A DNA stretch of 64,000 nucleotides from an uncultured Candidatus Saccharibacteria bacterium. GTDB taxonomy: Bacteria; Patescibacteriota; Minisyncoccia; Phycocordibacterales; 2-02-FULL-43-11. This document shows, piece by piece, positions 3,042 through 58,645 of the stretch. Location of the stretch: positions 21,724-85,723 of the forward strand of contig CAYGDO010000001.1 in NCBI GenBank assembly GCA_964348785.1, given 5' to 3'. The translations under genes and the position numbers were made by a program. The first letter of the stretch is position 1. Each line of letters begins with the position of its first letter. A model generated the notes under the pieces. That model made no database searches and had not been told where the DNA came from. It saw only the letters and a list, made by a program, of their open reading frames with translations.

Positions 3042-5318
3042 ATGTTTTATAATTATCATCTTATGATTGGTTATCCAAAATCAAGCCAGCCTTGGATTGT
3101 CTACGTGTCCACTTTTCCCCCTCGCACCTGTGGTATAGCCACTTTTACTCAAGATCTAATGGATACATTTGATAATCTTTACGCACCAAAAGAAAAATCC
3201 AAAGTAATAGCTATGAATATTGATAAAAAATCAAATTTCAAATATGACAAAAACAGAGTAATTTTTAAAATAAACCAAAATGAAAAAGAGGAATACATAA
3301 AAACAGCGGAACAAATAAACAACCTTCAAAACGTAATGGTTGTTAATATTCAGCACGAATTTGGTATTTTTGGAGGTGAATATGGAGATTATATTATTGA
3401 TTTTATAAAAGAACTGTCAAAACCCATCGTCCTTACCTTACACACAGTCCTTCCGTCACCCAACGAAAAACTTAAAAAAAACGTTGAGGAATTAGGAAAA
3501 AATGTCGATGTAATCATAGTGATGACAGAAACTTCAAAAAAGATTCTATTAAAAGATTACACAATTGACGAAAATAAAATTAAAATAATTCCACACGGTA
3601 TTCACCCTGAACTATTTTCAGACGGTATAAAAGAAAAAGCTATTCTAGGGCTATCCAATAAAATTGTTTTATCTACATTCGGATTATTAAGCAAAGGCAA
3701 GGGTATTGAATACGGAATTGAAGCTCTACCTCAAATAGTTGAAAAATATCCCGATGTTGAATACCACATAATAGGCGCCACTCACCCCGTAGTAGTAAAG
3801 GAAGAAGGTGAAGTATACAGAGAATCTTTAATTGAAAAAGTAAAAAAACTAAAATTAGAAAAAAATGTATTTTTTCACAACAAATACTTAGATCTTTCTG
3901 AGTTACTCTGTTTTTTAAAAGCTACAGACATATATATGTCACTTCCTCTTGATCCCAACCAGGCAGTTTCAGGAACTCTTTCTTATGCATTAGGAACAGG
4001 TAGACCAGTTATCGCCACTTCGTTCGCACAAGCAAAAGAAGATGTTACCCCAGAAATCGGTATTCTAGTTGATTTTAAAAATCCAAAAGAAATCACGGAG
4101 GCACTCTTCAACCTTCTTGATAAACCTGAACAATGTAAAGAAATGGGTAAAAAAGCCTACTTTAGAACTCGAAGTAAAACTTGGCAAAATGCAGCTTTAT
4201 CATATATGAATGAATACATAAAACTTGCACCGAATTTGGCCAAAATTGAAAAAAATCTTCCACAAATTAAACTCGACCATATTATTGAATTAACAGATGA
4301 ATTTGGAATGATTCAGTTCGCCAAACTAACGAAGCCCGATACATCATCTGGTTACACCATAGATGATAATGCTCGCGCCCTTATTGCAATCACAAAGTGT
4401 TTCGAGCAACATAAAAGTGAAAAATTACTTGATTTGATAAAAATTTACCTAAATTTTATTGATTACGTAGCTCAATTTTTTGGAGAATTTTATAACTACG
4501 TAAATTATGATCGCAGTATCCCAATTGAAAAAAACCATACTGACAGTTTAGAAGATGCCCGAGCTAGAGCTCTATGTGCCCTATCTTACGTCGCCACATC
4601 TTCATCAATTCCAGAAAATCTTAAAGACAAAGCTTCAACCTTATTCAAATACAGTATGGAGACCTTTTTTCCAGAACACCCACGCTCTATCGCTTTTTTT
4701 ATAAAATCTTTAACAACTTGGTATTCAGTTGATTCATCAGAAAAAAATAAATCAAAAATAATTGAATTGTCAGACAAAATAATAACGATGTACAGAGAAA
4801 ATTCAAATCAAAACTGGCACTGGTTCAGTGACTCCTTAACGTATTCTAACGCCATCCTACCAGAAGCCTTAGCTCTGGCTTACAAAATAACACAAAAAGA
4901 AGAATTTCTAAAAATTTCTGAAGAAAGTATGGACTTTTTAATAAATTACAGTTTTGGTGAAAAATTATGTATGCCTATAGGTCAAAAAGGTTGGTTGCAA
5001 AAAGGGGGTGAAAAACAATTATATGATCAGCAACCAGAAGAGGTATCTACTTTAATAGAAGCACTGGTGACCTTATATAAAATTACAAAAAAAGAACGCT
5101 ATAAAGAATTATCAAGAAATGCATTTGATTGGTTTTTGGGACATAACACTCTACAACAAGTAGTCTATGACCAAACAACTGGGGGTTGTTACGATGGCGT
5201 AGGAAAAGAATATATCAACCTTAATCAAGGAGCGGAATCAACAGTCATGTACCTGTTGGCACGAATAGCAATAGAAAATATTTCAGAAAATATCTCCGAT
5301 TTATACGACCCCGCTTAA
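3042..5318 (+). CDS. glycosyltransferase family 4 (GT1-fold) protein with long C-terminal alpha-helical (glycoside-hydrolase-like) extension
   Basis: 758 aa; N-terminal half resembles Glycos_transf_1 (HIIGATHP... EXXXXXXE-type region GTGRPVIATSFAQAKEDV); C-terminal 350 aa of unknown function. Confidence 0.65.
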   Translation: MFYNYHLMIGYPKSSQPWIVYVSTFPPRTCGIATFTQDLMDTFDNLYAPKEKSKVIAMNIDKKSNFKYDKNRVIFKINQNEKEEYIKTAEQINNLQNVMVVNIQHEFGIFGGEYGDYIIDFIKELSKPIVLTLHTVLPSPNEKLKKNVEELGKNVDVIIVMTETSKKILLKDYTIDENKIKIIPHGIHPELFSDGIKEKAILGLSNKIVLSTFGLLSKGKGIEYGIEALPQIVEKYPDVEYHIIGATHPVVVKEEGEVYRESLIEKVKKLKLEKNVFFHNKYLDLSELLCFLKATDIYMSLPLDPNQAVSGTLSYALGTGRPVIATSFAQAKEDVTPEIGILVDFKNPKEITEALFNLLDKPEQCKEMGKKAYFRTRSKTWQNAALSYMNEYIKLAPNLAKIEKNLPQIKLDHIIELTDEFGMIQFAKLTKPDTSSGYTIDDNARALIAITKCFEQHKSEKLLDLIKIYLNFIDYVAQFFGEFYNYVNYDRSIPIEKNHTDSLEDARARALCALSYVATSSSIPENLKDKASTLFKYSMETFFPEHPRSIAFFIKSLTTWYSVDSSEKNKSKIIELSDKIITMYRENSNQNWHWFSDSLTYSNAILPEALALAYKITQKEEFLKISEESMDFLINYSFGEKLCMPIGQKGWLQKGGEKQLYDQQPEEVSTLIEALVTLYKITKKERYKELSRNAFDWFLGHNTLQQVVYDQTTGGCYDGVGKEYINLNQGAESTVMYLLARIAIENISENISDLYDPA

Positions 5319-12350: not shown

Positions 12351-12466
12351 ATTATTTTTTTATCCAATTTTTTGACAAATTAAGAATCCGACACCTGCCA
12401 TTAAATCCTTTATTATCAATGTATTATAACAATTTTCCGCTTATTCACATCAATATATTAAATACC

Positions 12467-12495
12467 ATTGACACTATTAAATTGACGTGGTAATT
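12467..12495 (+). promoter_or_regulatory. sigma70-like promoter TTGACA-N17-TAATTT driving GC-rich cassette gene 1 (contains internal TTGAC direct repeat)
   Basis: cattgacactattaaattgacgtggtaattta; near-identical copy at 13287-13315. Confidence 0.55.
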
Positions 12496-12541
12496 TACTC
12501 TCTAACTTGCCCAACGCGGGCGAGAGTACACCAAGAATCAA

Positions 12542-13159
12542 ATGAGCACACAGGCAAAAACCCCGGAAACCCCGACTCCCAACGCCAAACCCGAACCGCC
12601 GAAGGCCTCCGTGCCTCCGCCGCTACCGAAGCCGTCACTCGAGCAGGTCTTCACGACCCGCCTCGACGCGATCTTCGCAGGCCAGCGGACCCCCGAAGCG
12701 GAGCTGTTCGAGCCCCTCGAAAGGCTCGACCCCAGAAAGCACGAGATCATCGGGATCGTCACCGACCAGAAGAGCCGGGAGCTCTTCTCCCTGGCCCGGC
12801 GACTGGAGGAAGAGCAGAAAGGTGTCCCTCTGGCCCGCAAGCCCGGACAAATCCCCCAACACGAGACCGATGTCGCGACGATCAACAATCAGCGCAAAAC
12901 GGTCTTGAGCCTCTTCTGGCATCATGCCAAAGCAACGGGCATCAAGGCGGGAACGCCCACCGACATGTCGATTGGGATCGTGCAGGGATGGAAACTGGTC
13001 ATTGCTCCCAGTGAGGGAGAAGTCCTCGGTGGACTCGTCGAAATCATGGGCATGGGGCTTCCTCCCGGGCTCCTCGACCACCTCCGTCGCGGTCAAGACG
13101 GTGATCCCGGCGACGACCGCCGGCCCAGCAGGGGCTTCGGTAGCCCCGAAGGCGACTAA
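12542..13159 (+). CDS. GC-rich Pro-rich hypothetical protein, paralogue 1 of tandem cassette
   Basis: 205 aa; shares RLDAIFAGQRTPEAELFEP / DQKSRELFSLARRLEEE block with paralogue 2 (RLAAIFTGATTPKEDLFEP / DQRSRELYSLAQLLKEE); flanked by promoter and terminator on + strand. Confidence 0.55.
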   Translation: MSTQAKTPETPTPNAKPEPPKASVPPPLPKPSLEQVFTTRLDAIFAGQRTPEAELFEPLERLDPRKHEIIGIVTDQKSRELFSLARRLEEEQKGVPLARKPGQIPQHETDVATINNQRKTVLSLFWHHAKATGIKAGTPTDMSIGIVQGWKLVIAPSEGEVLGGLVEIMGMGLPPGLLDHLRRGQDGDPGDDRRPSRGFGSPEGD

Positions 13160-13188
13160 ACCCGCCTCGCTCACCTCGACCCCCTCAC

Positions 13189-13222
13189 GCGCAGCGTCCT
13201 CCCTGGACACTGCGCTTTTTTT
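13189..13222 (+). terminator. rho-independent terminator (GCGCAGCGTCC-TCCC-TGGACACTGCGC + T7)
   Basis: hairpin plus U-run; near-identical copy at 14147-14180. Confidence 0.7.
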
Positions 13223-13286
13223 ATTCAAAATTTTAAATACCCTTCAAAATATTTTTTACTCATTATAATCTCCATATTTTCCATCA

Positions 13287-13315
13287 TTGACACTATCAAA
13301 TTGACGTGGTAATTT
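13287..13315 (+). promoter_or_regulatory. second copy of cassette promoter TTGACA-N17-TAATTT
   Basis: catcattgacactatcaaattgacgtggtaattta. Confidence 0.55.
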
Positions 13316-13376
13316 ATTTTCACTTGGCCAATGGTGGTCAAGAGTACACACAAGAACCAAATCATCAGGCAAAACC

Positions 13377-14114
13377 ATGAATCCTCAACACGAGACACCG
13401 CCCGACAGCGCCAGTGCCGTCCCGAACGAAGTGCCCCCGCCGACCGAAGGCGAGCAACAACAGGGACTTCCTCCTGTGATCGGCCCGGAACTCACCGCCG
13501 CACCGCCCGAACCCCAGGTCGCCGCTGAAGGAAACGATGCACCCCCGACCACGAAACCGGCGCCGGAGACTCAGCCGGCACCCTCGCTGGCGTGGGTCTT
13601 CATGAATCGCCTGGCCGCGATCTTCACGGGAGCAACCACCCCGAAAGAGGACCTGTTCGAGCCGATCCAGGACTACGGCTTCGACCGAATCGACGGACTT
13701 GAATTCGCCGGCGTCATCCACGACCAGCGGAGCCGGGAGCTCTACTCCCTCGCACAGCTCCTCAAGGAAGAACGGGGCTCCCTCCGTCAACCCCGCAAGT
13801 CGAAAGAGGTCAAAGACCACGACCTGCGGAGTGCGATTCTCCAGGAGCAAGAGAAACTCGCCATGGCACTCTTCGTCCAAGCGGTCAAAGCCGAACTGCC
13901 GAAGGCCGACGTTAACGACCTCACTATCGCTGTGTTCGAGGACTGGCGAGTCGGCGTCGCAAGGCAAGACAATCAGGATGGTGGTTTCCAGTCCCGTCTC
14001 GCCGAGGCCATCGGCCTTCCGCCGGAGCTCATCGCCCATCTCAGTCGCCGTTCGCGCGACGAAGACCCCCACGCTCGCGAAGAGCGACTCTACCCCGGTG
14101 GCGGACGCGGTTGA
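13377..14114 (+). CDS. GC-rich Pro-rich hypothetical protein, paralogue 2 of tandem cassette
   Basis: 245 aa; paralogous to 12542-13159 at protein level with synonymous-type nucleotide divergence. Confidence 0.55.
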   Translation: MNPQHETPPDSASAVPNEVPPPTEGEQQQGLPPVIGPELTAAPPEPQVAAEGNDAPPTTKPAPETQPAPSLAWVFMNRLAAIFTGATTPKEDLFEPIQDYGFDRIDGLEFAGVIHDQRSRELYSLAQLLKEERGSLRQPRKSKEVKDHDLRSAILQEQEKLAMALFVQAVKAELPKADVNDLTIAVFEDWRVGVARQDNQDGGFQSRLAEAIGLPPELIAHLSRRSRDEDPHAREERLYPGGGRG

Positions 14115-14146
14115 GTGATTCTCTCCAGTCCGAATCGACCTCTCGC

Positions 14147-14180
14147 GCGCAGCGTCCTCCCTGGACACTGCGCTTTTTTT
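14147..14180 (+). terminator. rho-independent terminator, copy 2
   Basis: gcgcagcgtcctccctggacactgcgcttttttt. Confidence 0.7.
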
Positions 14181-14212
14181 ATTCAAAATTTTTTATGCTC
14201 TTAACTAAAAAA

Positions 14213-18005: not shown

Positions 18006-18548
18006 TTATTCTAAAATATAATCCCACCCTGGTTTCCAAGATTTTGTTTTTCTCCAATCTTCAGCAAAAGCTTGTTCCCAAGTCTTACCCTTCAAAATAA
18101 CATCAAGAGCAAGTTGAGGGGCTTTGTGAGCAACTATCGCAACACTTTTTCCATCATAATTATTTTTTAAATCTTTTAAAAAATTTAGAATTCTCATCCT
18201 AACATCCTCATAACTTTCTCCATTTGGCATAGGATTAAAAATTGATTTTTCTTGAAGAGGTTCAACAATGTCTGATAACTTTCCATTATAATCCCCATAA
18301 TTACATTCTCGTAATCTTTTATCTTGAACAATTGGCACAATTCCACCAAAAGTTAACTCCGCCGAATCAACCGCCCTTTTCAAATCAGAGGTAAAAACAA
18401 CATCAAATTTCTTATCTATTTGAGATAATAAATCTTTTGACTGTTTAATACCAAGTGGAGATAATTCAGCATCGTTCCAACCTGATGAAATTCCATTTTC
18501 ATTATCTATTGTCGTGCCGTGGACAAAATAAGTAATTTTTATTGACAT
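18006..18548 (-). CDS. histidine phosphatase superfamily protein (phosphoglycerate mutase-like)
   Basis: 180 aa; ITYFVHGTTIDN (RHG-like catalytic His), later AIVAHKAPQ. Confidence 0.65.
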   Translation of the reverse strand: MSIKITYFVHGTTIDNENGISSGWNDAELSPLGIKQSKDLLSQIDKKFDVVFTSDLKRAVDSAELTFGGIVPIVQDKRLRECNYGDYNGKLSDIVEPLQEKSIFNPMPNGESYEDVRMRILNFLKDLKNNYDGKSVAIVAHKAPQLALDVILKGKTWEQAFAEDWRKTKSWKPGWDYILE

Positions 18549-18643: not shown

Positions 18644-18916
18644 ATGAGCACGACGATAAAAAACCGACCTGTCGTTGGACAAGTTGTCCGATGGATTGAA
18701 CCGGGTGAGTACCCAAGAAACCCAGAATACATCACCAAAAAAAAGGCGGATTACCCAGGCGAACTGAGAATTCACTCAATTGAGAATCAGCCATCACGTG
18801 GGAAAGGATTCTTTTTCGTCACAGTATCTCACAACGGCTCGCCCATTATGAGCGCGGTAGACACGGGACGCCCTGCAATTTTTGATCCCTCTTGGTTCCA
18901 CTGGGATGGCGAGTAA
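18644..18916 (+). CDS. hypothetical small protein (moderately GC-rich)
   Basis: AGGAG 7 nt upstream of ATG at 18644; 90 aa. Confidence 0.4.
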   Translation: MSTTIKNRPVVGQVVRWIEPGEYPRNPEYITKKKADYPGELRIHSIENQPSRGKGFFFVTVSHNGSPIMSAVDTGRPAIFDPSWFHWDGE

Positions 18917-19147: not shown

Positions 19148-20548
19148 TCAACCAGAAAGAAGGTATCCGATGGCATCTGATGCTGTGTATGAGCCACGCT
19201 CGTGCGTCATTAACTGGCGCAAATACGCATGATCTTTCCCGAGCGTGACAATTGCAGATTCTCCTGGACTGCCGAGACCTACGGTCGCGGTCAACCCATT
19301 ACAAAGGCACCTAGCACCAATTGTATCTTCGGCTCGCCCACCCAGTCGTCCGTAATCACTAACAGGTTGTGCCCTGCAACGAAAACCGATTTCACCATCA
19401 GGTCTCTGATATGCGACTGACAGCGCGCACAAGTCACACACGCGAGGTCGATCTTCGTACACCTTTGCATCTGACAACGTGCCAGGTAGTTGCACTACCT
19501 GGAATGGAAACCCTGTAGGAGACGCGTTCGGATCGCTTAGGACCTCGAGTTCCCCCCGAAAACCCAGACGCCGAATTTCATTGCGATACTGTGACAAAAT
19601 GCCAGAATTATCGGAAAGCGCAAACATAGAGCCCACCTGAATTCCTGTTGCACCAAGATCTTGGGCTTCTCGTAGTCCAGCCGGAGAAGCAAGACTACCC
19701 CCAATCCAGAACGGGCGACCTAAATCGCGAATCTTTTGAAGGTTCGGCACATCACGTACGCCATAGACTGGTTCGCCTCGCGGATTCAATACCAACTGAC
19801 CACGAGGTGATGCATTATGTCCACCAGCACATTTTTTCTCAACGACAAATCCATAAATACCATCTCCAAGGCGTGCGTCCATTGCCATCGCAAGCACGTG
19901 AGATGAGACAATTGGCAAAAATAGCGGACGTGTTAGTCTCGGAAGCTTGTCTCCGAAATACCTCCTCGGATCAAAGTGAACCTCAATGTAACCAAGTGAA
20001 CTTCCTTCAACTACAACGCGGTACACCGCCGGCTCTCCTTTTGCGTATGCATCAAGTACTCCCGGCACCATCATGGGAATACCTGCTCCCATCGTCACGA
20101 CATGAACACCCGCAAGCATCGCGCCGTAAAGCTGGGCAAGAAGCATACACTGCATTTTCTCGAGCAAATTGATGCTGATTAATGCGCTGTGATCTTCCTT
20201 TGCCAACCAAACAATGGCGAATGTTGAAGCGACAGTAAGCTCAACCAGATCTGGACTTGGATTGAGATGAAATGCCGGCACAGGCTTAAACTGCTCTCCC
20301 TGTGCAATTCCACCATCAACGTAATACTTGCTGACAATCCTATCCGCAACACCTGCAAAAGGAAAATGCGCAAGTGCTCGCCTGAAGTGGCCACCAACAT
20401 CTCCCAGCTGAAGAATGCGCGACACCACAAACCAAGACGCAACACCGCTAACTGTAGACAAAACATCTGGAGATTTTGCACCTTCTTGTGCCAAATCCTT
20501 ATTAGAAACAGCGACACCCATACCGCCGATGATTATTCTTTTGTTCAT
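19148..20548 (-). CDS. nitronate monooxygenase/FabK-like NAD(P)H-dependent flavin oxidoreductase family protein (GC-rich)
   Basis: 466 aa; IIIGGMGVAVS N-terminus and GATGIQVGSMF TIM-barrel FMN motifs; AAAGGTG RBS. Confidence 0.5.
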   Translation of the reverse strand: MNKRIIIGGMGVAVSNKDLAQEGAKSPDVLSTVSGVASWFVVSRILQLGDVGGHFRRALAHFPFAGVADRIVSKYYVDGGIAQGEQFKPVPAFHLNPSPDLVELTVASTFAIVWLAKEDHSALISINLLEKMQCMLLAQLYGAMLAGVHVVTMGAGIPMMVPGVLDAYAKGEPAVYRVVVEGSSLGYIEVHFDPRRYFGDKLPRLTRPLFLPIVSSHVLAMAMDARLGDGIYGFVVEKKCAGGHNASPRGQLVLNPRGEPVYGVRDVPNLQKIRDLGRPFWIGGSLASPAGLREAQDLGATGIQVGSMFALSDNSGILSQYRNEIRRLGFRGELEVLSDPNASPTGFPFQVVQLPGTLSDAKVYEDRPRVCDLCALSVAYQRPDGEIGFRCRAQPVSDYGRLGGRAEDTIGARCLCNGLTATVGLGSPGESAIVTLGKDHAYLRQLMTHERGSYTASDAIGYLLSG

Positions 20549-20640: not shown

Positions 20641-20949
20641 TTATAAAACTGAAGTGTAAACCAACAAAAACAACATAAGAGCTACAAAACAAAAAAATGT
20701 AACTAAAGTTTTAACAAAAAAAGATAGGGCTTCTTGCCTTTTATTTTCTAACAGCAATCTAACCGGTTCAAAAAAGAAAAGTATAGCCATGACAGCCACA
20801 GAAAGGACAAGCAGGCTAAGCATTGTCATAGGAATAATTATAGTATCTTCTGTTCCCATAATGCCTTTAATTATTGTACTCATTACAAGAACCCCTCCGA
20901 CTATATAACCTCCAGCCATCAATGCATTTATAAATGGATTTTTTAACAT
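20641..20949 (-). CDS. small membrane protein
   Basis: 102 aa, three hydrophobic segments. Confidence 0.4.
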   Translation of the reverse strand: MLKNPFINALMAGGYIVGGVLVMSTIIKGIMGTEDTIIIPMTMLSLLVLSVAVMAILFFFEPVRLLLENKRQEALSFFVKTLVTFFCFVALMLFLLVYTSVL

Positions 20950-21027: not shown

Positions 21028-21055
21028 TTTTTACAAAGGTCGAACCTTTGTAAAA
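21028..21055. repeat. perfect palindromic repeat TTTTACAAAGG-TCGAA-CCTTTGTAAAA (copy 1)
   Basis: 11-bp inverted arms, 5-nt loop; further copies at 24421-24448, half copy 23164-23183, inverted variant 45971-45990. Confidence 0.8.
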
Positions 21056-21546: not shown

Positions 21547-22245
21547 TTGACTACCTACATGAATCCGCTCACTAAGATAGAGAAACTCCGGTCAGTAAGA
21601 CGAGTTGTGCATCCGAAGGAAATCTTTGGGATTACAAAAATCGACTTCCTGTTTTTTGTCTGCCCCAAAATGAAGAGTCCCGGCATCGTGGTAGAGAACG
21701 GCAAGTTGACCGCTCGATATGTTAACGGGCTTTCCAGCTTCACAAATGCCAGAATCCAAAAGGTAAATGCTTTTTTGGATGAATTGCGAGCGATTGAAAT
21801 AGATGGGTACGCCTTTTCGATCAAAGCGATTTTTGCCTCCGCCGACTCCTTCATTCTCTTCGAAACGCCAGTCGAACCTCCGAGCATGACTCCGGCCATT
21901 CCAGGCATTGAAGTCGTCAGCAATCTAGAGATATACAAAAGAAACCGCCCCACTAATCTAGAAACTCTTCTTGAGGAACGTCCATGGGAAAAAATACCGT
22001 CCAGACACCTTGAAGAACAAAGGCTGAAGAAACTTCTACCTGCTGATGCGACACGAGAGATGAGGCAACGCTTTGTCGAGAGGACATTTGCGGGGTTTGC
22101 TCTAGACGGCGTAGTCATCCGACATGATGCCTTTTCTTCCACTGCTCGCAACCCAGTAATTCTTGGAGTGGAGTCACCGGGGGTTGCCGACCTCCAAAAT
22201 GCGCAACTTGGAGAACATCCAATCCCGGTAGTTCAGTTGGTGTAA
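21547..22245 (+). CDS. hypothetical protein (moderately GC-rich); track start is TTG, alternative ATG at 21559
   Basis: 232 aa ORF followed by terminator. Confidence 0.45.
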   Translation: MTTYMNPLTKIEKLRSVRRVVHPKEIFGITKIDFLFFVCPKMKSPGIVVENGKLTARYVNGLSSFTNARIQKVNAFLDELRAIEIDGYAFSIKAIFASADSFILFETPVEPPSMTPAIPGIEVVSNLEIYKRNRPTNLETLLEERPWEKIPSRHLEEQRLKKLLPADATREMRQRFVERTFAGFALDGVVIRHDAFSSTARNPVILGVESPGVADLQNAQLGEHPIPVVQLV

Positions 22246-23163: not shown

Positions 23164-23183
23164 TTTTACAAAGGTCGAACCTT
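23164..23183. repeat. half copy of the palindromic repeat
   Basis: ttttacaaaggtcgaacctt. Confidence 0.6.
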
Positions 23184-23210
23184 AAATCATAAATTAAGGC
23201 GCGGTTTTAC

Positions 23211-24420: not shown

Positions 24421-24448
24421 GTTTTACAAAGGTCGAACCTTTGTAAAA
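24421..24448. repeat. palindromic repeat copy 2 (overlaps last codons of 24424-24813 gene)
   Basis: gttttacaaaggtcgaacctttgtaaaaac. Confidence 0.8.
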
Positions 24449-24865: not shown

Positions 24866-26347
24866 CTAAGATAATTTCCGAACAATTCCCTTATCAGCAT
24901 CAACTTCTATTATATCGCCATCTTTCAAAACTTTAGTAGCAATTTTAGTGCCAATAATACAAGTTTTATTTAATTCTCGACTGACGATCGCTGCGTGGCA
25001 AGTAATACCACCTTCATCAGTCACAATTGCACCTGACCTTTTCATAAGCGGAACAAATTCTGGCCTTGTCATACCAGTAACCAATATATCACCGTCTTTA
25101 AAATGTCCACCGAGTTCTGCATCAAGAATAATTCGTGCGATACCACGCACCTTACCCTTACAAGCAATCTGTCCTTTTATGATGTTTTCAACAGCCGGCT
25201 GTTCCAATTTAATATGATGCTCATTAATTTCTTTTTTTATTTCAACAAAATTATCATAATTAATTTTTATATCACCGTTAAACAACATATATATTATGTA
25301 ACCATCCGCCCTTTTTTCAATTTCTTTTTTAATAGATTTTATAAACTCAACACCTTTTGTAAGTTCCACAGTTGGCAAGACAAATCCAATATATTTTGGA
25401 TCAATACTTGCCTCTTTAAATATCCTTTCGGCTATACGCCAATTTACAGTTAAAACTTTAGCGAAAAAGTTTTTACGACGATCACGCACACGCATTACAG
25501 TCTGACAATAATCAGCAATGACTTTTTCTTCATCTAATAATTCTTTATACCACTTATTATATTCTTCAAGATTTTTTTTCTCATTAAAAAGAATCTCTTG
25601 CCTTTTATTTTCTGCATCAACTGTGTTTATGTCTCCGTATTTACTCATTAAACGTTTCCGAACTTCTGGCAACAATTGCACATCCCTGTAAGTTGCATAA
25701 AAGAATTGGCAATCTTCAGCTATCTCGGAAATCGTTTTACCTTGCGCAAGTAATGACAACCCAAAATATTCTTGCTCTCCGTCAAAAGATCTAAATATAG
25801 GCACCGTGGCTTTTTCCCATAATTTATCTAAATTTTCTTTTGTGATTGGATACTTTTTAGAAGAAAGAACGTTTGCGCACAATTCTTTATCAAAATAAAG
25901 CGAAAAATATAAAGATGAGTTAGAAATGTGAATTAAGTCAAAAGCTTTTTGTATCAATGGGTAAAGCACCTCTATGTTTTCATTCTTTATACGTTCATAT
26001 GTATATTCTTTATATATTTCATCAACCTGTCTTTCATTTTTGAGAAAATTATCTTCAAGATTTTTTGTAAAAAAACGATCATCCAAATAACGATTAAAAC
26101 CCTCTATTGAGTCATTAACAATTGGGTTCGTAGGTAAATATACCGTCAAGCTTTCTCCGTCATTTATATTTAACGCGGAATAATTAAAATGTTTCGTATA
26201 CGGTGTAAGTTTAAAATATTTCTCAGTATTAAATCCTGAACTAAAATAAAAAAGCCCGCAATTATTCATGGGCCATATTTTACCGGTACCCACATCCCCT
26301 AAAAAACCTTCTAAAATCTGTTGTTCTGTATTTCTTGAAATCATCAA
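24866..26347 (-). CDS. PEP-utilising-enzyme mobile (phosphohistidine swivel) domain protein with novel N-terminal domain (paralogue G)
   Basis: 493 aa; C-terminus [46 protein letters not shown] matches PEP-utilizers mobile domain with catalytic His. Confidence 0.7.
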
Positions 26348-28088: not shown

Positions 28089-28109
28089 TTACAAACTGGG
28101 GGACTTGGA
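28089..28109 (-). repeat. 21-nt direct copy of tRNA-Gln 3' end (TTACAAACTGGGGGACTTGGA), about 180 bp downstream of the tRNA
   Basis: identical to 28271-28291. Confidence 0.8.
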
Positions 28110-28277
28110 ACGTGATTACACTTCTCGACTTCGACTCAAAGTTCGCCGTCTCTCACTTTGGTCTAGTCACCAGCTCGTCCGTTTCTTTTACTAAAGAAAC
28201 ATGACTCCGCTGTTCGAGTCCAAGTCGTAAGCAAAGCAGTTTACTTACTTCCCCACAGTTTTTCACTGCGTTACAAA

Positions 28278-28348
28278 CTGGGGGACTTGGACTCGAACCA
28301 AGATACTAGGCTTCAAAGGCCCATGTCCTACCATTAGACGATCCCCCA
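28278..28348 (-). tRNA. tRNA-Gln (anticodon TTG)
   Basis: Reverse strand folds as cloverleaf: acceptor TGGGGGA/TCCCCCA, D arm GTCT..GGAC, anticodon stem TGGGC/GCCTA with loop CTTTGAA, T arm CTTGG-TTCGAGT-CCAAG, discriminator G; CCA not encoded. Confidence 0.8.
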
Positions 28349-28577
28349 ATATTTAAAACTCAATCCTATACATTCAATCTTCACATTCGCCCTTCTGGGC
28401 TCAGTACTCCTTCGTTCTCACTCGGTCGCTGGGCTCAGTGTTTCCTCACACCACAAGGGCACTTCCAATTTCATAGTCGCTTCACTCCTTGAAATTTAGG
28501 TCGCTCTCGCTCGGTCATAAAATACCTTTTTTTGGTTAAAATTTCAACCCGATTTCTTATATTTGATATTTAATTTT

Positions 28578-29618
28578 TTACTTTTGATTTTGTTCTAGCG
28601 TCTCCACCACAGCTATCTCAAGCGGAATAGCGGGCATATCAGAACGAGCAGATTCGCCTTGAGCGACAAGAAGTCGGGACAAAGTTTTAGAAGTTATTTT
28701 TTCGCCATTTTTACCAGCAAGATTTTGAATAAATTTAAAATCTTCTTCAGAAAATTCTTGCTTCTTTGTTTCAATCAACTCCGGAGCAAAACGTAAGAGC
28801 ATAATTTGTCTAACTTTTTCAATCACTAAATTCAAAAAAACTTTAAAATCAAAATTACCCACTTCAACATCATTGATTACAGAAAGCGCTTTTGAAACTT
28901 CCCCACCAGCCAAAGCCAAAATAAAATCCTGGACCAAAGATTTTTTTGGAGCACCAGAAATAGACACGACATCTTCTTCTGTAATTTTGCTTTTCTTTGA
29001 TAAAGAAATGGCTTTTTGCAAAACCCCATGCGTATCACGAAAAGAGCCATCTCCCAAAACCACAATCAAATCAACTGCTTCTTTTTCTATTTCAAAACCT
29101 TCTTTCTTTGCCACTTTTTCAACCATCTGTTTCAAGATGGCATGATTTGGTTTTTTAAACATAAAATGCTGACATCTGGAAAGAATAGTTTCTGGCAATC
29201 GATCAGGTTCGGTTGTAGCTAAAATAAAAATGACGTGCGAGGGTGGTTCCTCAAGAGTTTTTAAAAGCGCATTAAATGCTTCTTTAGTCATCATATGAGT
29301 CTCGTCAACAATATAAACTTTATATTTTGATTCAAAAGGTAAAGTTAAAACGGCCTCTTTTAAAGCCCTTACTTCATCAATGCCTCTATTTGAAGCAGCG
29401 TCCATTTCATAAAGGTCATTATTTGAAGTACCAATAGCTTTTGCAAAAATTCTAGCAACAGAAGTCTTGCCTGTGCCACGTCCGCCAGAAAATAAATAAG
29501 CGTGAGAAATTTTCTCCTCTTTTATAGCACTTTTAAGAGCTTTAACTATATGCTCTTGTCCCAAAACTTCATCAAATTCTTGAGGACGATATTTTCTATA
29601 AAGCGATAATTCCGACAT
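28578..29618 (-). CDS. dnaX: DNA polymerase III subunit gamma/tau (short form)
   Basis: 346 aa; YRPQEFDEVLGQEHIV, GGRGTGKTS Walker A, IVDETHMM Walker B, SRC sensor. Confidence 0.75.
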   Translation of the reverse strand: MSELSLYRKYRPQEFDEVLGQEHIVKALKSAIKEEKISHAYLFSGGRGTGKTSVARIFAKAIGTSNNDLYEMDAASNRGIDEVRALKEAVLTLPFESKYKVYIVDETHMMTKEAFNALLKTLEEPPSHVIFILATTEPDRLPETILSRCQHFMFKKPNHAILKQMVEKVAKKEGFEIEKEAVDLIVVLGDGSFRDTHGVLQKAISLSKKSKITEEDVVSISGAPKKSLVQDFILALAGGEVSKALSVINDVEVGNFDFKVFLNLVIEKVRQIMLLRFAPELIETKKQEFSEEDFKFIQNLAGKNGEKITSKTLSRLLVAQGESARSDMPAIPLEIAVVETLEQNQK

Positions 29619-30681: not shown

Positions 30682-32316
30682 TTATGAATTCAAGTATGGA
30701 CAATTTGTAGCAATTTCAGAAGTCATTTTTACTTTGCCAGTTTTAACATCCTTTGCATCTGGACATACAAATTTTGGTCTTGGACTTGGAAGCTGGATAT
30801 TTTTATAGTTCGTACTCTTCTTACAAACAATATCGTTTATTTTAGCTTTCGTAGTTATATACACACAACCAGTTGAACAATCTAATCCCCAACTTTCTTT
30901 CAAAACATCAAGCGCATATCTTTCTTGGAATTTTCTGACAATTTCAAATGTTGCATCATCATAAAGACCGGTAATCTTGATGTCGTATCCTTCATAATCT
31001 CTTAAGAATTTCTGAAGTTTAATAACTTCACTCTTTGCATCACCAAATCCACAACCAAGATAAGTTTTAAGATAAGGTTCACAAGGAGCGACAGGTTTAA
31101 CAATAGGTTTAGACTTTACAGCCTCAACAACTGTTGCCACCTGACTTTTAGTTTTTACTGAACCATTATAAACAGACCCCGTTTGCTTACTACCGCTAAA
31201 AAACGATCCTGATCTAGTTCCACCATTAAAAACAGATCCTGACTGTCCGCCTCCGCTAAAAATAGATCCTGAATCGTTACCATCATTTCCAACAGAAGAT
31301 AAATCTGTATTACCGTTTTGATCGGAACCATTTCCATAACTATCGCTATCCAAGTTCCCACCAAAAATATTATCTAAATTATTATTATCATTACCAAGAG
31401 AACCGTTATCACTAGAATCATTTCCACTTGAACCAGAATCTAAATTATTGTTTCCATAAGATAAATTAGTTTGACTTCCTGAACCATAAGAATAATTCCA
31501 GTATGAATCAGAATTTATAGAAGAAACATTTATCGCAACATTACCGCTTGAAATATTACCAGCTTGAATTGGCACAGAGTTACCCAAATTATTATTTCCA
31601 TTATTAAAGGAATTATTATTTGCAGATTGATTATTCAAAGAATTATTCAAAACTCCCCCAGTTTGAGAATTAAAATTAGAAGATGATTGAGAATTATTAA
31701 CACCGTTATTTTGTGATTGATTATTAGCTGAACCGCCTGAAACACTATTATTACCAGTAGTATTATTTAGTGATGATTGCGAATTAGAAGAATTATTATT
31801 TAAAACGCTATTACCAGTAGTTATATTATTAGCTGAATTAACATTTTGATTATTGTTAGAAACCGTTCCGCTTCTGTTAGTAGAACTATTTTGATTATTA
31901 TTTTGAGTAATACCAGATGACAAATTAGCATTCGATGAAGAAACGCTTGGAGTAATGCTGTTAGAAGCCGGTGACGGTCTCATTGCACTAATACCAACAC
32001 CCACAGAATTTGAATTGGAATTACCAACATTACTTTGAGTATCAAAAACTGAAGAAGCACCATGGCTTTGAATTTCAGAAGCACTAAATCCGTAAAAACT
32101 TAAAGGTTTCACTCCATCTGAAAAACTATTTTGTGTTGGAGTCGAACCGGTTCTAGGTAAAGGTTCAGAAGCTCCAGGAATAATCTGATAGTTGATTGTA
32201 TTGTCAGCAAAAATTGAAACTGGAAAAACCATTAATAACAAAACTGCAAAACACATAATTTTGCCCAAAAAATTCAAAGCAATTCCTCTTTTTACCGTAA
32301 AAATGTTTATACTCAT
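30682..32316 (-). CDS. secreted/cell-surface protein: signal/TM, long Ser/Asn/Gly-rich low-complexity region, C-terminal peptidoglycan-binding (PG_binding_1-like) domain and Cys-rich tail
   Basis: 544 aa; ...LKTYLGCGFGDAKSEVIKLQKFLRDYEGYDIKITGLYDDATFEIVRKFQERYALDV matches PG-binding domain. Confidence 0.6.
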   Translation of the reverse strand: MSINIFTVKRGIALNFLGKIMCFAVLLLMVFPVSIFADNTINYQIIPGASEPLPRTGSTPTQNSFSDGVKPLSFYGFSASEIQSHGASSVFDTQSNVGNSNSNSVGVGISAMRPSPASNSITPSVSSSNANLSSGITQNNNQNSSTNRSGTVSNNNQNVNSANNITTGNSVLNNNSSNSQSSLNNTTGNNSVSGGSANNQSQNNGVNNSQSSSNFNSQTGGVLNNSLNNQSANNNSFNNGNNNLGNSVPIQAGNISSGNVAINVSSINSDSYWNYSYGSGSQTNLSYGNNNLDSGSSGNDSSDNGSLGNDNNNLDNIFGGNLDSDSYGNGSDQNGNTDLSSVGNDGNDSGSIFSGGGQSGSVFNGGTRSGSFFSGSKQTGSVYNGSVKTKSQVATVVEAVKSKPIVKPVAPCEPYLKTYLGCGFGDAKSEVIKLQKFLRDYEGYDIKITGLYDDATFEIVRKFQERYALDVLKESWGLDCSTGCVYITTKAKINDIVCKKSTNYKNIQLPSPRPKFVCPDAKDVKTGKVKMTSEIATNCPYLNS

Positions 32317-32456: not shown

Positions 32457-33587
32457 TCACCACCCGAGACGAAAGAAGCGTGAGGGCTCGAGTGCTCTCC
32501 CCACAACCACACCACGGTCGTAGATCGGGACTGTCCCGATATTGACCGGGTACTTGCCCGGCCAAATGGGATAGTCATAGACAGGAGCCCACGGACCCCG
32601 AGCGTCCGTCGCTGAGTACAATCGGGCCTGCTGGCTCCCGGTCGCTTGGAAGTCCATGAAGACTTGCCCCGCCCGAGAAATTTCCAACGTGAACGAAATC
32701 GGTGGCGAATAGCCCACCGGCAGGTCCAATCGGAGTTCCGCGAGGAGCTTTCCGGTAATGGCGCCCCAAACCCGATACCAGAAAACGTACTTGTTACAGG
32801 ACTGAAAGTCCCGTTGAATCTGGTAAAGATCACCAGAATACCTGGCCTCCTTGGCGGTGTAGAAACCGAGGGAATACAACTCATTCACACCCTGATAGTC
32901 AGGACCGGCCCGGATTGACTTGTCGTCACTCGTGCCCTTCCGACCATCGGGTCCGTATTGCACTCCTTGATTGGCGAAGCCGTAATCACCCAACCCGTAA
33001 TTCCAGAAGCTGTCGGTCCAGGGGTTTACTCCCCGAGAACCGTACTCGACTCGCTCGAGATTAACCGGCTCCGGCGATTGACGAATGGCGAGAAGTGCCA
33101 CCACTCGTGTACCCTGTTGAATGCACTCTTCGGATCGCAACTCCTGATTTCTCCAGAATCGAACGTTGCTTCCAGTGGCATCAACGAAGTCGTGCCACGC
33201 CAGTCCAGCGACCGGTGTAAAATCGGTAGGGGTATTCTGAACCGGGCTGGCCCCGCGTCCAGTCTGCAACCAACGCATGGCGTTCAAATTCCATGCATCC
33301 ACCGAGCATTCGGATGCCGGCGAAACGGCAATAGTGATGTCAGCGATGACTCCCGCGGCAAGGTAATTATTGGCAGGAGGGATTCCTTGCTTGGGATACC
33401 AGTCCCAGCTCTTCCAATCCTCCGCCCACGGATCCGTATCCGTGTAGAAGTGGATGGGCGCCGGTGTCCCGCACCCGTCACACCCGATAGTGGCCGGTTG
33501 GGTCACCGCGCCACCAATGGTGGCTTGGCCGAAGAGGTTGAGAACGAAACCGAAGACGAATCCGAGGGTAACGATACTGGTTTTCAT
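32457..33587 (-). CDS. GC-rich secreted hypothetical protein (Trp/Tyr/Gly-rich)
   Basis: 376 aa with N-terminal signal peptide; strongly GC-biased codons unlike neighbours. Confidence 0.5.
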   Translation of the reverse strand: MKTSIVTLGFVFGFVLNLFGQATIGGAVTQPATIGCDGCGTPAPIHFYTDTDPWAEDWKSWDWYPKQGIPPANNYLAAGVIADITIAVSPASECSVDAWNLNAMRWLQTGRGASPVQNTPTDFTPVAGLAWHDFVDATGSNVRFWRNQELRSEECIQQGTRVVALLAIRQSPEPVNLERVEYGSRGVNPWTDSFWNYGLGDYGFANQGVQYGPDGRKGTSDDKSIRAGPDYQGVNELYSLGFYTAKEARYSGDLYQIQRDFQSCNKYVFWYRVWGAITGKLLAELRLDLPVGYSPPISFTLEISRAGQVFMDFQATGSQQARLYSATDARGPWAPVYDYPIWPGKYPVNIGTVPIYDRGVVVGRALEPSRFFRLGW

Positions 33588-34087
33588 GGATTTCTGAGTG
33601 TCGAGGGTTGTTTGTGAAAAAGTTTTTTCGCTTCTTCCCTTATTTTTTTAGAAAAGAGCGAAACTCATCTCTTATTACTATAAAATTGACGAAAAGTCAA
33701 TGATATTGGGAATGAAAAAATGAAATCAAATTATGCTATTTTATTAATAAAATATTTTTACAAATTTACTATTTTTTCACACATACACCATTTTTTCGCT
33801 ATAGTGAAAAAATGGTGTATAGGTATTTGTTGTTTAATTGTTGTTTGAAATTTATTCACCCTAAAAATTTTATGGAAAATATTTTTTAACTATACTTTCT
33901 TTATAAAAATCAAAAAACAAATGCTTTGTAAAATAACTGTTGTTCAGTAATAAAATTGGGGGTCCATCCTATAAACTTTTTTGACATGTAAAATTTAGAA
34001 ACAAATCTAAAAATGTACAAAAGCAAAAGATAGTTTATAAAAAAGTTTTTAGGATAAATAAAAAAGACCCAGCATCTAGGACCCTTC

Positions 34088-34130
34088 AGGGGGATCTTTC
34101 GATGCTGGGTTCGCAAACGTGTGGTTGAGG
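34088..34130 (-). terminator. rho-independent terminator on minus strand
   Basis: ACCCAGCATC-loop-GATGCTGGGT followed on minus strand by CTTTTTTATTT. Confidence 0.55.
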
Positions 34131-34240
34131 CGGCCCGCCCGCTCCGTAGCGGGGATGAGTTATTTTCGGGGCTGATCATCACAGCCCTGAGATCTCGAGT
34201 TCGAGTTGCATGAGGAAGGTCCTCTGCGCGCCGGGGGACT

Positions 34241-34360
34241 TCAGGCGATGATGCCGATGGCGACGCCGATGGCCGTGGACGCGGAATTGACGATGGCGCT
34301 CTTGGTGCCGATGGTGTTCACGGTGATGTGCGCCGGGGGCGCGTGTTCGGTGGGCTTCAT
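34241..34360 (-). CDS. candidate 39-aa GC-rich small hydrophobic peptide (MKPTEHAPPAHITVNTIGTKSAIVNSASTAIGVAIGIIA)
   Basis: GAGGA 8 nt upstream of ATG; terminator about 110 nt downstream; alternative longer ORFs overlap in other frames. Confidence 0.3.
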   Translation of the reverse strand: MKPTEHAPPAHITVNTIGTKSAIVNSASTAIGVAIGIIA

Positions 34361-34511
34361 GGTGTTTGTCCTCGAGCTTGGTCGCGAATCTGCCCAATGC
34401 GGAGTTAGTGCCACACCAGTGACACACCTTTGGCAAAAGCCTTAGGTCGATAACTTGCAAAGAGCTGGGCAACCAAATAAAAATGCTACACCTGCCCCAA
34501 AAACCTGTCAA

Positions 34512-35556: not shown

Positions 35557-35581
35557 ACACTTCTAAACTATCAGAATAATA

Positions 35582-35616
35582 GAAAATAAAAAAGGCCACC
35601 TGAGAAAGTGGCCCCT
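35582..35616 (-). terminator. rho-independent terminator
   Basis: GGCCAC-ctgagaaa-GTGGCC with T-run on minus strand. Confidence 0.55.
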
Positions 35617-35634
35617 TAAAGAACACATCGAGAC

Positions 35635-37014
35635 TTACGCGTACTGGTCCGGTTTCCCTGGAACAGGATCTACGGACCGATACACTTCGAGTCTCAACCT
35701 ATCAACCCTGAAAATCGGGGCGAGCAGACGAAAGAGTCGTTCGTTTCGAACCGCATGTGATTTCGAACTAGCAGAGGTAAATAGATACTTAGACATATCT
35801 CTGCCAGAAAGAATTGAGGCGACGCCACTCTCCGCCGTAAGCAAGCTGGTCAAGACAATGTAGAAATGCACATCAAGCACCAACCTCTTTCGGGCCGGCA
35901 ACTGACAAGTGCAGTCCGCGTCCAAACCTGCCATTTCAACGAAAGAAGTGATGACATTGTCCACCGCTTCAGAGAGTGGGAATGACAGATTCCCCTCAAA
36001 GAACAATCGCTGGCTGTCCGCTGACAGAAAGCGATGAGTCTCTCCCTTCTCGTCAATCAAGCGATAGAAACGGCTAGGATCAGAGTTCGAGATTTCCTTG
36101 AGCACCCGCCTCAATCGTTCTTCGCCCAATGACCGAAACAAGAACGCCGAAGCCAACTCCACCTGCGGAAACATCACTTTGGTTGCGGCGACGTGGAAAG
36201 CAAACGGGCTCGCCGCCCGCAGGGCAATCCCCGGCAAACCATGATTCAAACTCTCCGGTAAGGTCCTGCTGGACCAGCGTGCAGAACCCGGCCAAAGGTT
36301 CTCATCGTCGGAAATGCGCACCCCAACACAATGGCACACACTGTGACCTTCGTTGTACGCACGTTCCATGAACTCGTGCATGAGAACCTTGCGCCCAGTA
36401 CGCGCCACCTCTTCAGGATTGGCACCGTGCCAAGAGCCAACGTGAGTCGTCCGAATACAACTTGGCGGGAGACCACTTATGTCTTTGTAGCCAGCATCGA
36501 CTACGACAAACAGTTTTTCCTCCTTCCTACGTGAGTCATCACCGTAAGGCCAGATGCAGAGATGATCGGCCCTGTCAGTCCAGTTCCTGCCGTGGAGCAC
36601 CCAAGTACTGATGATATTCCTAGCTAGACTATCCAAACGGCGATCAGTGTATTCCCTCCTCGTTCCCAACTTCCAAATGGCTGGCGAGACATTGGCGTAC
36701 CGACCAACTGAAAGGACCCAGATATCTCCCTCCTGCCTCGCGTCTTTCATCGAGCACGAGCAACTTTCAGGAGCATCCTCAAGAAACAAGCCCTCTTTCC
36801 GACCCAGAACGAGAGCAAGAGGCCTGGTCTCGCCAGTCACTTTAAAAGTCACCTGGCCTGTCCACTCACCGTCACCTGAAGATGAAAAAGAAAGTCCGAC
36901 CTGATCGGTGGAAAAGCCTCCAGCGATTTTTCTGAGGATGACCTCCGCGACCCCGCCCGAGTTAGCCGAGATAACCGACACCAACTCACTACCAGGTTTA
37001 ATTGTCGTTGTCAT
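35635..37014 (-). CDS. GC-rich hypothetical protein (about 459 aa from ATG at 37014)
   Basis: Track ORF extends to 37167 but upstream extension is AT-rich and contains a terminator hairpin (GGGCCC-tcaaacg-GGGGCC+TTTTCTT at about 37090-37120); no family recognised. Confidence 0.5.
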   Translation of the reverse strand: MTTTIKPGSELVSVISANSGGVAEVILRKIAGGFSTDQVGLSFSSSGDGEWTGQVTFKVTGETRPLALVLGRKEGLFLEDAPESCSCSMKDARQEGDIWVLSVGRYANVSPAIWKLGTRREYTDRRLDSLARNIISTWVLHGRNWTDRADHLCIWPYGDDSRRKEEKLFVVVDAGYKDISGLPPSCIRTTHVGSWHGANPEEVARTGRKVLMHEFMERAYNEGHSVCHCVGVRISDDENLWPGSARWSSRTLPESLNHGLPGIALRAASPFAFHVAATKVMFPQVELASAFLFRSLGEERLRRVLKEISNSDPSRFYRLIDEKGETHRFLSADSQRLFFEGNLSFPLSEAVDNVITSFVEMAGLDADCTCQLPARKRLVLDVHFYIVLTSLLTAESGVASILSGRDMSKYLFTSASSKSHAVRNERLFRLLAPIFRVDRLRLEVYRSVDPVPGKPDQYA

Positions 37015-37361
37015 TGCTTGCCTTGTTGTTTTGCCTGTTTTCGTCAAAGAACTTATCGCCCGTCTCCACACGGAGTAGCGATTAAGAAAAGGCCCCCGTT
37101 TGAGGGCCCGTTTCTTCAATTGATTTTTGCAATAAGAGAAACCGACCCTCAAACTTGTGGGGACCAAAAGCTAAAATAAAAGTTTGCAGTTCGGAATTTC
37201 ATAGTTATATATAAATCATACATAATCGTTTTTTTATGTCAAATGTAAAAAATCCACACCCCAAGGTCACACCTCCTATAAAAAACACTGTCAAACTAAG
37301 AGTGATTTTAAGATCTATATATGTAAAAAGTACAAAGTTCGACCTTGTAAGTAATTTGGTT

Positions 37362-50186: not shown

Positions 50187-50672
50187 TCAAATCTCACCGA
50201 AAAGTCGGTGGACAGAGATAACCCGTTCATAGTAAAACCTTGCATCTCTAGGCCACCGACGCATCATCTGACATTCTTCAAGGTAGGCCGTCCTAATAAT
50301 AAAAAAGTAGTAGGCTCCCGCGATGAGGAGTGCAAGGGCAGAATGATCGTAAGCAAGAAACACCAAATCAGCGACGATGTACGATGCGTAGGCGGGATGG
50401 GCGACAAACCGAAACGGTCCGTCCACTTTTAGCCTGAGGGCCCCCTGAACCATTTGTCGTGATAGGGAAAACAACACCCAACCGACAAACAAGATCCAAA
50501 GGACGATACCGACCTTGAGGAAAACGATGTGTTCCTGGGGCGCCTTCGCCCACAGAAAACGGTACGAAAACCAGTACCGGACGACCGCCAAGGCCATCAT
50601 CAGATACCAGTTGAAGTTGGAACGAAAAGACAAAGAGCTTGTATTCATGACTCGCGAGAAATTAACACTCAA
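50187..50672 (-). CDS. isoprenylcysteine carboxyl methyltransferase (ICMT/PEMT)-family membrane methyltransferase
   Basis: 161 aa; GPFRFVAHPAYASYIV motif. Confidence 0.6.
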   Translation of the reverse strand: MSVNFSRVMNTSSLSFRSNFNWYLMMALAVVRYWFSYRFLWAKAPQEHIVFLKVGIVLWILFVGWVLFSLSRQMVQGALRLKVDGPFRFVAHPAYASYIVADLVFLAYDHSALALLIAGAYYFFIIRTAYLEECQMMRRWPRDARFYYERVISVHRLFGEI

Positions 50673-58632: not shown

Positions 58633-58645
58633 AAAATTTACTTAA

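Follow-up and report, generated by a model that had tools for sequence, protein, structure and literature searches.

We report two tandem, self-contained expression units in a 64,000-nucleotide stretch of contig CAYGDO010000001.1 from an uncultured Candidatus Saccharibacteria bacterium (the whole stretch is hereafter called the window). Unit 1 (12466-13234) and unit 2 (13285-14192) both lie on the + strand, and each comprises a sigma-70-type promoter, a 5' leader hairpin, an open reading frame (ORF) with ~63% G+C (GC) and an intrinsic terminator, in a genome of ~35% GC. The reading that we favour, with moderate confidence, is that the two ORFs are old paralogues of one protein family of the candidate phyla radiation (CPR), organised as autonomous units whose ends have been gene-converted and whose mRNA is stable, and that the high GC content of their third codon positions (GC3) has been kept with the gene. 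What is novel here is the protein family and its candidate leader motif; the genetic unit itself is of a familiar kind. The parts of the two units are as follows.

12468..12496, + strand: promoter of unit 1, with the -35 hexamer TTGACA at 12468-12473, a 17-nt spacer and the extended -10 element TGgTAATTT at 12488-12496
12502..12534, + strand: 5' leader motif of unit 1, with a stem pairing 12506-12512 with 12518-12524, then GUACAC at 12526-12531
12542..13159, + strand: ORF1, 205 amino acids (aa), family paralogue W1, supported by codon periodicity, homologues and AlphaFold
13189..13222, + strand: intrinsic terminator of unit 1, an 11-bp stem with one mismatch, then T7, inside a 47-nt block
13287..13315, + strand: promoter of unit 2, one mismatch from that of unit 1
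13319..13352, + strand: 5' leader motif of unit 2, with a stem pairing 13323-13330 with 13335-13342, then GAGUACAC
13377..14114, + strand: ORF2, 245 aa, family paralogue W2 (P0001), supported by homologues and AlphaFold
14147..14180, + strand: intrinsic terminator of unit 2, inside the identical block 14146-14192

Repeat and ORF mapping confirmed the arrangement given in a preliminary description of this DNA, that of two tandem units each with its promoter, leader, ORF and terminator. A 32-nt promoter block is present in two copies with one mismatch (12466-12497 and 13285-13316), and the 27-nt terminator stem-loop GCGCAGCGTCCTCCCTGGACACTGCGC in exactly two copies (13189-13215 and 14147-14173); shuffled sequences are expected to contain neither. 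The terminator repeat is part of a longer identical block of 47 nt (13188-13234 and 14146-14192). The duplicated promoter of the preliminary description therefore stands, but not its start at 12467, as TTGACA begins at 12468 in unit 1 and at 13287 in unit 2. Windowed GC, a calculation that the description had suggested, was 0.58-0.70 over 12500-14100, compared with 0.25-0.37 in the flanks and 0.37 in the entire window, and our recount of the first 60 nt of ORF1 gave the same 37/60 G+C. The steps in composition fall at the promoter and terminator signals.

The author of the preliminary description did not recognise the protein family and proposed profile, AlphaFold and Foldseek searches, which yielded 53 homologous clusters, a confidently predicted core shared by both proteins and no fold relative in the PDB or BFVD. 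The clusters came from an exhaustive hidden Markov model (HMM) profile search of 1.84 billion representative proteins; all 53 have E <= 1e-3, 29 have E <= 1e-10, and their lengths range from 130 to 290 aa. The scores from a local family HMM, 193 bits for ORF1 and 178 bits for ORF2, make both of them members by profile. The family alignment shows nearly invariant Gly, Pro, Ser and Trp columns and the core pattern F..R[LI]..I[FY].G ... P ... RE[LF][FY]SL ... P.PR ... LFW ... GW. AlphaFold2, run on this alignment, returned models with a mean predicted local distance difference test score of 85.5 for ORF1 and 81.6 for ORF2 (cores >90), and after a low-confidence N-terminal tail the two models have one and the same order of elements, H-E-H-H(long)-E-E (beta hairpin)-H-H.

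Across the family, an N-terminal tail of ~30-70 residues, rich in Pro, Ala, Ser and Thr, predicted to be disordered and with a median isoelectric point (pI) of ~10, precedes a core of ~125 residues (pI ~6.7) and a C-terminal tail with a pI of ~4.9. In ORF1, residues 1-30 form the predicted disordered, Pro-rich basic tail, residues ~31-156 the alpha/beta core and the remainder an acidic tail. Residues 1-65 of ORF2, predicted to be disordered and acidic or Pro-rich, are followed by the same core fold as in ORF1; its N-terminal tail is acidic, unlike the basic family norm. The N-termini of the two proteins are thus unrelated and Pro-rich, as had been described. A basic disordered tail joined to a globular core and an acidic tail suggests, by analogy, an abundant nucleic-acid-associated protein. 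Scans of Pfam, NCBIfam, PHROGs and PADLOC with all 41 aligned members gave only scattered sub-threshold matches of single members, so that none of these libraries contains the family, and a profile search of the PDB sequences returned nothing; Foldseek comparison of the models with the PDB and BFVD gave no match at E <= 0.001. Protein-pattern scans of viral and genome contigs revealed no relatives, a phage DNA search gave no match, and a literature search found no description of the family. Two homologues carry the source names 'Patescibacteria group bacterium' and 'Candidatus Paceibacterota bacterium' and, among the members that could be placed, the family is apparently confined to Patescibacteria-type (CPR) chromosomal contigs. 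The contig that holds the window is a 222-kb metagenome contig of ENA/NCBI.

The regulatory DNA belongs to the gene family and is not local DNA around a foreign ORF. We examined 11 family genes at 10 loci (the window and L003, L005, L006, L014, L017, L020, L021, L022 and L023), and 10 of the 11 were monocistronic, with a strong promoter, a covarying 5' stem-loop followed by GURCAC, and a terminator of their own. At each of the nine loci outside the window the gene stands alone, and its upstream region holds a TTGACA -35 hexamer and a -10 element; the hairpin starts 8-12 nt past the -10 hexamer, as measured at eight loci. A near-identical extended -10 block, AATTGNCGTGRTAATTT, is found in W1, W2, L003 and L006. 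The hairpin is followed by a GU[AG]CAC-like motif and an A/C-rich, unstructured stretch that leads to the ATG, and past the stop codon lies a GC-stem/T-run terminator. The whole 5' untranslated region (UTR) measures 40-75 nt, and its stem has a UUG...CAA base and covarying inner pairs ahead of the GURCAC. The unit 1 motif starts ~1-3 nt past the transcription start inferred from the -10 position. At L005, L014 and L021 the hairpin is weaker or atypical.

Covariation argues for a conserved structure in the leader. In an alignment of six leaders all six stem pairs were 100% paired and three had changed on both sides, giving a covariation score reached by none of 500 shuffles; shifted registers paired at only 36-50%. 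The stems of units 1 and 2 themselves differ by compensating changes, so that the leaders cannot be called near-identical, as they had been, in the arms of the hairpin. The hairpin was present in the minimum free energy folds of five of the six leaders folded. Within the 64-kb window a covariance model of the motif (R1) matched the two leaders (34.5 bits for unit 1) and nothing else, even when its filters were off; it also weakly recovered L020, which was outside its training set. Scans of genome and metagenome contigs with the promoter pattern gave one known locus and otherwise chance promoters.

The preliminary description had proposed a search for the cassette elsewhere, and the promoter-hairpin-terminator layout is present at nine other family loci; the full monocistronic unit, GURCAC included, was seen in both window units and at eight or nine of these loci. 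Since the regulatory parts recur with the gene in other genomes, they do not represent a local wrapping of a foreign ORF, and the term 'native-looking AT-rich regulatory DNA' was misleading: promoter type, leader motif and terminator layout travel with the family. What surrounds the family genes is unrelated housekeeping (among others DnaB, RecR, L21, trigger factor, ClpP, RNase Y, HU, MurE, RNase HII and L32), and at the nine other loci the family gene has neither a conserved operon partner nor a phage or mobility setting. Genes for an HAD hydrolase, a DUF2157 protein, a PIF1 helicase, a GDSL lipase and a NUDIX protein neighbour the pair in the window.

The lack of a Shine-Dalgarno sequence was considered as a special feature of the leaders and dropped, because most native genes of the window also have none (mean duplex energy with the anti-Shine-Dalgarno sequence, -0.9 kcal/mol) and many are seemingly leaderless. 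Many native genes have a TATAAT-like box 4-10 nt before the ATG (for example 28578-29618, 30682-32316, 3042-5318 and 20641-20949), a position that suggests widespread leaderless mRNAs in this organism.

Judged by their sequences, the two window copies are old paralogues of one family. A neighbour-joining tree of 54 members places W2 as the sister of (W1, P0002), with both window copies and that of L006 in a single clade. When the two units are aligned as nucleotides, high identity is confined to the ends, namely the promoter, a short stretch past the leader hairpin and the terminator, the coding parts being ~60% identical. The W1 promoter differs at only 1 of 33 positions from that of W2 (36-38% protein identity); compared with the promoter of the L006 orthologue, which is 71% identical to W1, 5 of the 33 positions differ. 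The terminators of the window copies are identical over 47 nt, and those of the other family loci differ in sequence. The copies may have arisen by tandem duplication in this lineage, with their promoter and terminator ends since homogenised by gene conversion. We infer gene conversion because the ends are 97-100% identical, compared with ~60% for the ORFs, and because the W1 promoter is nearer to that of W2 than to that of its orthologue; very strong selection on the promoter may add to the similarity of the ends. Two family copies also occur, 2 kb from each other, in a second genome (L005), and their terminators have a common 14-nt core, GCAGGCAACTGCCG.

L005 3860-4375, + strand: second copy, P0052, N-terminally truncated, no obvious promoter
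L005 6001-6639, + strand: full copy, 2 kb downstream of the truncated P0052

The high GC3 seems to be a property kept with the gene rather than a fresh donor signature, a conclusion that we place only slightly above repeated transfer within the phylum. Like the structure of the unit, a coding sequence rich in GC and C and poor in U is common to the family and no peculiarity of this locus. Family genes have a GC content of 0.55-0.66 and a GC3 of 0.63-0.83 on host contigs with a GC content of 0.32-0.57 and a median GC3 of 0.25-0.76, and at 8 of the 10 loci no other gene present has a GC3 as high as that of the family gene. The bias is mainly one of C over U in codons that end in a pyrimidine (TTC 14/TTT 0, ATC 17/ATT 3, GAC 23/GAT 4), with CTC making up 25 of 41 Leu codons and A and G near parity in the Glu, Lys and Gln codons; overall, third positions have C3 0.44, G3 0.30, A3 0.15 and T3 0.10. 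W1 and its L006 orthologue (host GC 0.32) each lie one or two genes from a GDSL lipase gene, whose products are 70% identical between the two genomes. For this pair of genomes the non-synonymous divergence (dN) is similar in the family gene and the lipase (0.18 and 0.22), whereas the synonymous divergence (dS) is 2-4 times lower in the family gene (0.6 vs 1.35-2.5, the latter saturated). Identical codons are used at 72% of conserved residues in the family gene and at 53% in the lipase, where saturation would give ~46-48%. It may be that GC3 is kept by constraint on synonymous sites, through C-ending codons and avoidance of U. On the earlier statement that simple horizontal transfer does not predict such a unit, the evidence is divided: the family is GC3-rich in every host examined and its synonymous sites diverge more slowly than those of a neighbouring native gene, but some ten other, unrelated GC-rich single-gene cassettes in the window are what repeated transfer would give.

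Several observations weigh against the reading of old, autonomous paralogues with a GC3 kept with the gene. The dS contrast comprises 92 codons and one neighbouring gene, and gene exchange after the lineages split would give equal dS numbers. The neighbour-joining tree has long branches and carries no support values. Transcription starts were placed from the -10 position alone, and '5'-terminal' as applied to the hairpin is hence an inference. The coding sequences of the ten family genes compared fold no better than their synonymous-codon shuffles (z -1.97 to +1.34). The GC3 of the cold-shock gene of this genome is only 0.35; high expression by itself thus fails to raise GC3 here and is weakened as a cause of it. 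The family has no sequence or fold relative in the libraries searched and no conserved neighbours. Furthermore, about ten other unrelated GC-rich single-gene cassettes occur in the window, one of them with the same C3-rich usage, which points to a general inflow of GC-rich DNA and favours transfer. According to a published survey, the transfers detected into Patescibacteria have mostly other Patescibacteria as their source (PMC12455944).

The alternative that survives best is plain transfer, which we regard as a serious though doubtful possibility. It holds that a Patescibacterium of ~60% GC was the recent source of the pair, or of each copy singly, promoter and terminator included, and that the GC-richness is merely an unameliorated donor signature, like that of the other GC-rich cassettes of this genome. 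The GC content of the three codon positions fits a native gene of a ~60% GC genome, family hosts reach 0.57 GC, and at L021 and L020 the GC3 of the family gene equals that of the host. Consistent with such an origin, 11 of the 53 window ORFs have a GC3 of 0.41-0.75, each with its own promoter and strong terminator; the His_Phos_1 copy at 53595-54236 shares the C3-rich usage; and the published survey traces most detected transfers to donors within the Patescibacteria (PMC12455944). Yet the family gene tops the local GC3 at 8 of 10 loci, hosts of medium and high GC included, and the two window copies fall into one clade with that of L006. The neighbourhood is also common to this genome and L006, and there the lipase is synonymous-saturated while the GC3 of the family gene stays at 0.75-0.78. 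Neither the window ORFs nor a repeat scan revealed a mobility gene, att site or flanking repeat around the pair.

Nine further genes of the window have a GC3 of 0.41-0.72, compared with 0.18-0.38 in native genes (2540-2884, 18644-18916, 19148-20548, 21559-22245, 32457-33587, 35635-37014, 46135-46833, 50187-50648 and 53595-54236). Each seems to form a unit of one gene that has a promoter to itself and ends in a strong GC-stem/TTTTTTAT terminator. The only Pfam match among the nine is that of 53595-54236 (His_Phos_1), which duplicates an AT-rich native His_Phos_1 gene at 18006-18548. The gene at 50187-50648, beside tRNA-Leu (50743-50829), encodes a GC-richer membrane protein of 153 aa and is driven by a third promoter of the same type (50659-50687, - strand; TTGACA-N17-TAATTT with AATTGAnGTG before the -10). 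On the - strand, a 1.5-kb island with a GC content of 0.52 (35581-37167) contains an ORF of 459-510 aa with weak codon periodicity (0.55/0.47/0.57); it matches neither Pfam nor, at E <= 0.1, Rfam, and may be coding or an RNA. Another GC-rich cassette on this strand (34080-34510) has a TTGACA-N17-TAGCAT promoter, a leader of ~130 nt, an ORF of 39 aa (MKPTEHAPPAHITVNTIGTKSAIVNSASTAIGVAIGIIA) and a strong terminator; its product may be a small hydrophobic peptide or simply a small RNA.

Could the units be actively mobile cassettes, moron-like or integron-like, that insert as promoter-gene-terminator units? Phage morons, known from lambdoid prophages, are autonomous promoter-gene-terminator units of deviant base composition. 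The units described here resemble them in that a single gene has its own sigma-70-type promoter and intrinsic terminator, a composition unlike that of its neighbours, and edges that coincide with the composition steps; as autonomous, compositionally deviant units they fit the moron definition, and the genomic contexts of family members vary. Nevertheless, the pair is flanked by chromosomal housekeeping genes rather than lying inside a prophage, neither PHROGs nor the viral contigs searched contain the family, and even distant genomes keep its regulatory parts together with the gene. An integron cassette would consist of a promoterless ORF and attC, beside intI. Here, in contrast, both units are driven by strong promoters of their own, the hairpin at the 3' end consists of a GC stem with a T7 terminator and is not attC (attC models were not run), and no integrase or other recombinase gene adjoins the pair. 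Active mobility is therefore an improbable explanation.

Both ORFs are real protein genes, and the evidence points clearly to protein. GC at codon positions 1/2/3 is 0.675/0.471/0.752 in ORF1 and 0.744/0.455/0.715 in ORF2, compared with ~0.44/0.33/0.27 in native window genes. The two products are 38% identical over 168 aa (E = 3e-31), and among six frame-to-frame comparisons of the copies that of the ORF frame scored best (127 bits; the others <=95.5). Codon-position GC, the best frame of six and the homologues thus bear out the earlier view that both copies are under coding selection, for which dN/dS is ~0.3 between ORF1 and its closest relative, the L006 orthologue. The accompanying claim that the differences in the core are largely synonymous did not hold: among the 179 codons aligned, 109 differ non-synonymously and 29 synonymously, and the other 41 are identical. 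The GC-rich region has long ORFs in several frames of both strands, and public gene calls (ENA/NCBI) list an antisense ORF (12635-13228, - strand, 197 aa, P0081) in place of ORF1. A word-index protein search with ORF1 accordingly gave no match, not even to itself, because ORF1 is not called in the public data. The antisense ORFs 12635-13228 and 13365-14186 were rejected as true genes, as the sense frame scores best and the homologues are all sense; both merely begin inside a terminator. Conservation of another frame than the + strand frames would, by the preliminary description, have spoken against the latter, but it is the + frames that win, with 53 homologous clusters and matching AlphaFold models.

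In AT-rich genomes a GC-rich island that has a promoter and terminator is often a structured RNA, and the islands described here might accordingly be structured non-coding or dual-function RNAs, their ORFs mere by-products of scarce stop codons. The pair shares with OLE, GOLLD, ROOL and HEARO (Rfam) the form of a GC-rich island, 650-750 nt long and equipped with promoter and terminator, within an AT-rich genome, with annotation there missing or on the wrong strand. The multiple long ORFs on both strands, the antisense choice of the gene caller for unit 1, a strong promoter and terminator laid out as in an RNA gene, and the folding of the unit 1 transcript (z = -1.95, 20 shuffles) are all in keeping with this view. 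However, an Rfam scan gave no match at gathering thresholds nor even at E <= 10, and the pair differs from these RNAs in having no covariance-model match and in being protein-coding: the three-base periodicity is clear, the 53 protein homologues keep invariant G, P and W positions, both copies have confident AlphaFold cores, and the ten family genes show no excess of structure over synonymous shuffles. On the Rfam scans, the codon periodicity and the folding comparison non-coding RNA was rejected, and the structured-RNA reading, largely refuted, is highly improbable.

An assembly chimera, in which GC-rich foreign reads were joined to AT-rich contig sequence, would account for the sharp composition steps, but it is the least probable explanation of all: a 971-nt contig of the independent Logan assembly is 100% identical to 13205-14175 and thus spans promoter, leader, ORF2 and terminator, the AT-rich promoter/GC-rich ORF junctions recur in independent metagenomes and metagenome-assembled genomes, and the composition steps match promoter and terminator positions. 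The Logan contig starts and ends inside the two terminator copies, as would be expected of a genuine repeat, at which a de Bruijn assembler breaks. Misassembly is very unlikely, since the independent contig is fully identical and ends only in repeats.

The window has other features as well. On the - strand, 54441-61573 is a head-to-tail array of five paralogous genes of 428-499 aa; it is followed, up to 63722, by a 683-aa gene that has PPDK_N and PEP-utilizers domains, and an extra paralogue lies at 24866-26347 (- strand). The array members scanned have a C-terminal PEP-utilizers mobile domain, and direct repeats between the copies are 61-75% identical. An identical 21-nt repeat, TTACAAACTGGGGGACTTGGA, occurs at 28089-28109 and 28271-28291, one copy overlapping tRNA-Gln (28277-28349, - strand) at its 3' end and its partner lying 182 nt beyond; the pair could be a scar of integration at this tRNA gene. 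The palindromic hairpin TTTTACAAAGGTCGAACCTTTGTAAAA is found between genes at 21029-21055, 23164-23190 and 24422-24448 (two exact copies and one partial) and looks like a reused bidirectional terminator.

To return to the reading of old paralogues organised as autonomous units, the combination of a 5'-terminal stem-loop, a 3' terminator hairpin and a U-poor body would be expected to give a long-lived, abundant mRNA. A hairpin near the 5' end shields mRNAs such as Escherichia coli ompA and Bacillus subtilis aprE/ermC from 5'-end-dependent decay. The family leader would resemble these stabilisers (hp1 in the case of ompA) in having a stable hairpin at a predicted distance of 1-5 nt from the 5' end, with an unstructured start region after it, but differs from them in keeping the UUG/CAA base and GURCAC in sequence. 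The motif may therefore double as an operator for a binding protein, because it is sequence-specific and exclusive to the family and because the UUG/CAA base and GURCAC exceed the needs of a stabiliser. This suggests a specific binding partner, possibly the family's own product, which would be the simplest candidate. Abundant small proteins are known to have autoregulatory leaders, as in the ribosomal-protein leaders and the cspA 5' UTR. As in those cases, a family-specific structured motif of the 5' UTR is co-inherited with one protein family; the difference is that the motif described here has no Rfam match and is a single hairpin of 6-10 bp, and that binding of the product is conjectural. 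Taken further, it is conceivable, if rather unlikely, that selection on the transcript or the DNA holds the family mRNA at ~60% GC, with C-rich and U-poor third positions, whatever the GC content of the host (32-57%), and that together with an operator hairpin this makes a long-lived, autoregulated message for an abundant CPR-specific nucleic-acid-associated protein.

Our results add an unannotated and apparently Patescibacteria-confined protein family, with a confident predicted fold that has no match in the PDB or BFVD, and a candidate cis-regulatory leader motif, and correct a wrong-strand gene call in the public records of unit 1. If the units were instead acquired by transfer, a streamlined, AT-rich symbiont would be taking in many single-gene, self-expressing cassettes from GC-richer relatives. 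If selection does hold the composition of the family mRNA, it would be base-composition selection acting on one gene family and not on a genome, and the invariance of GC3 across hosts would then make the family a compact natural system in which to test how selection acts on synonymous sites and on the composition of mRNA in reduced genomes.

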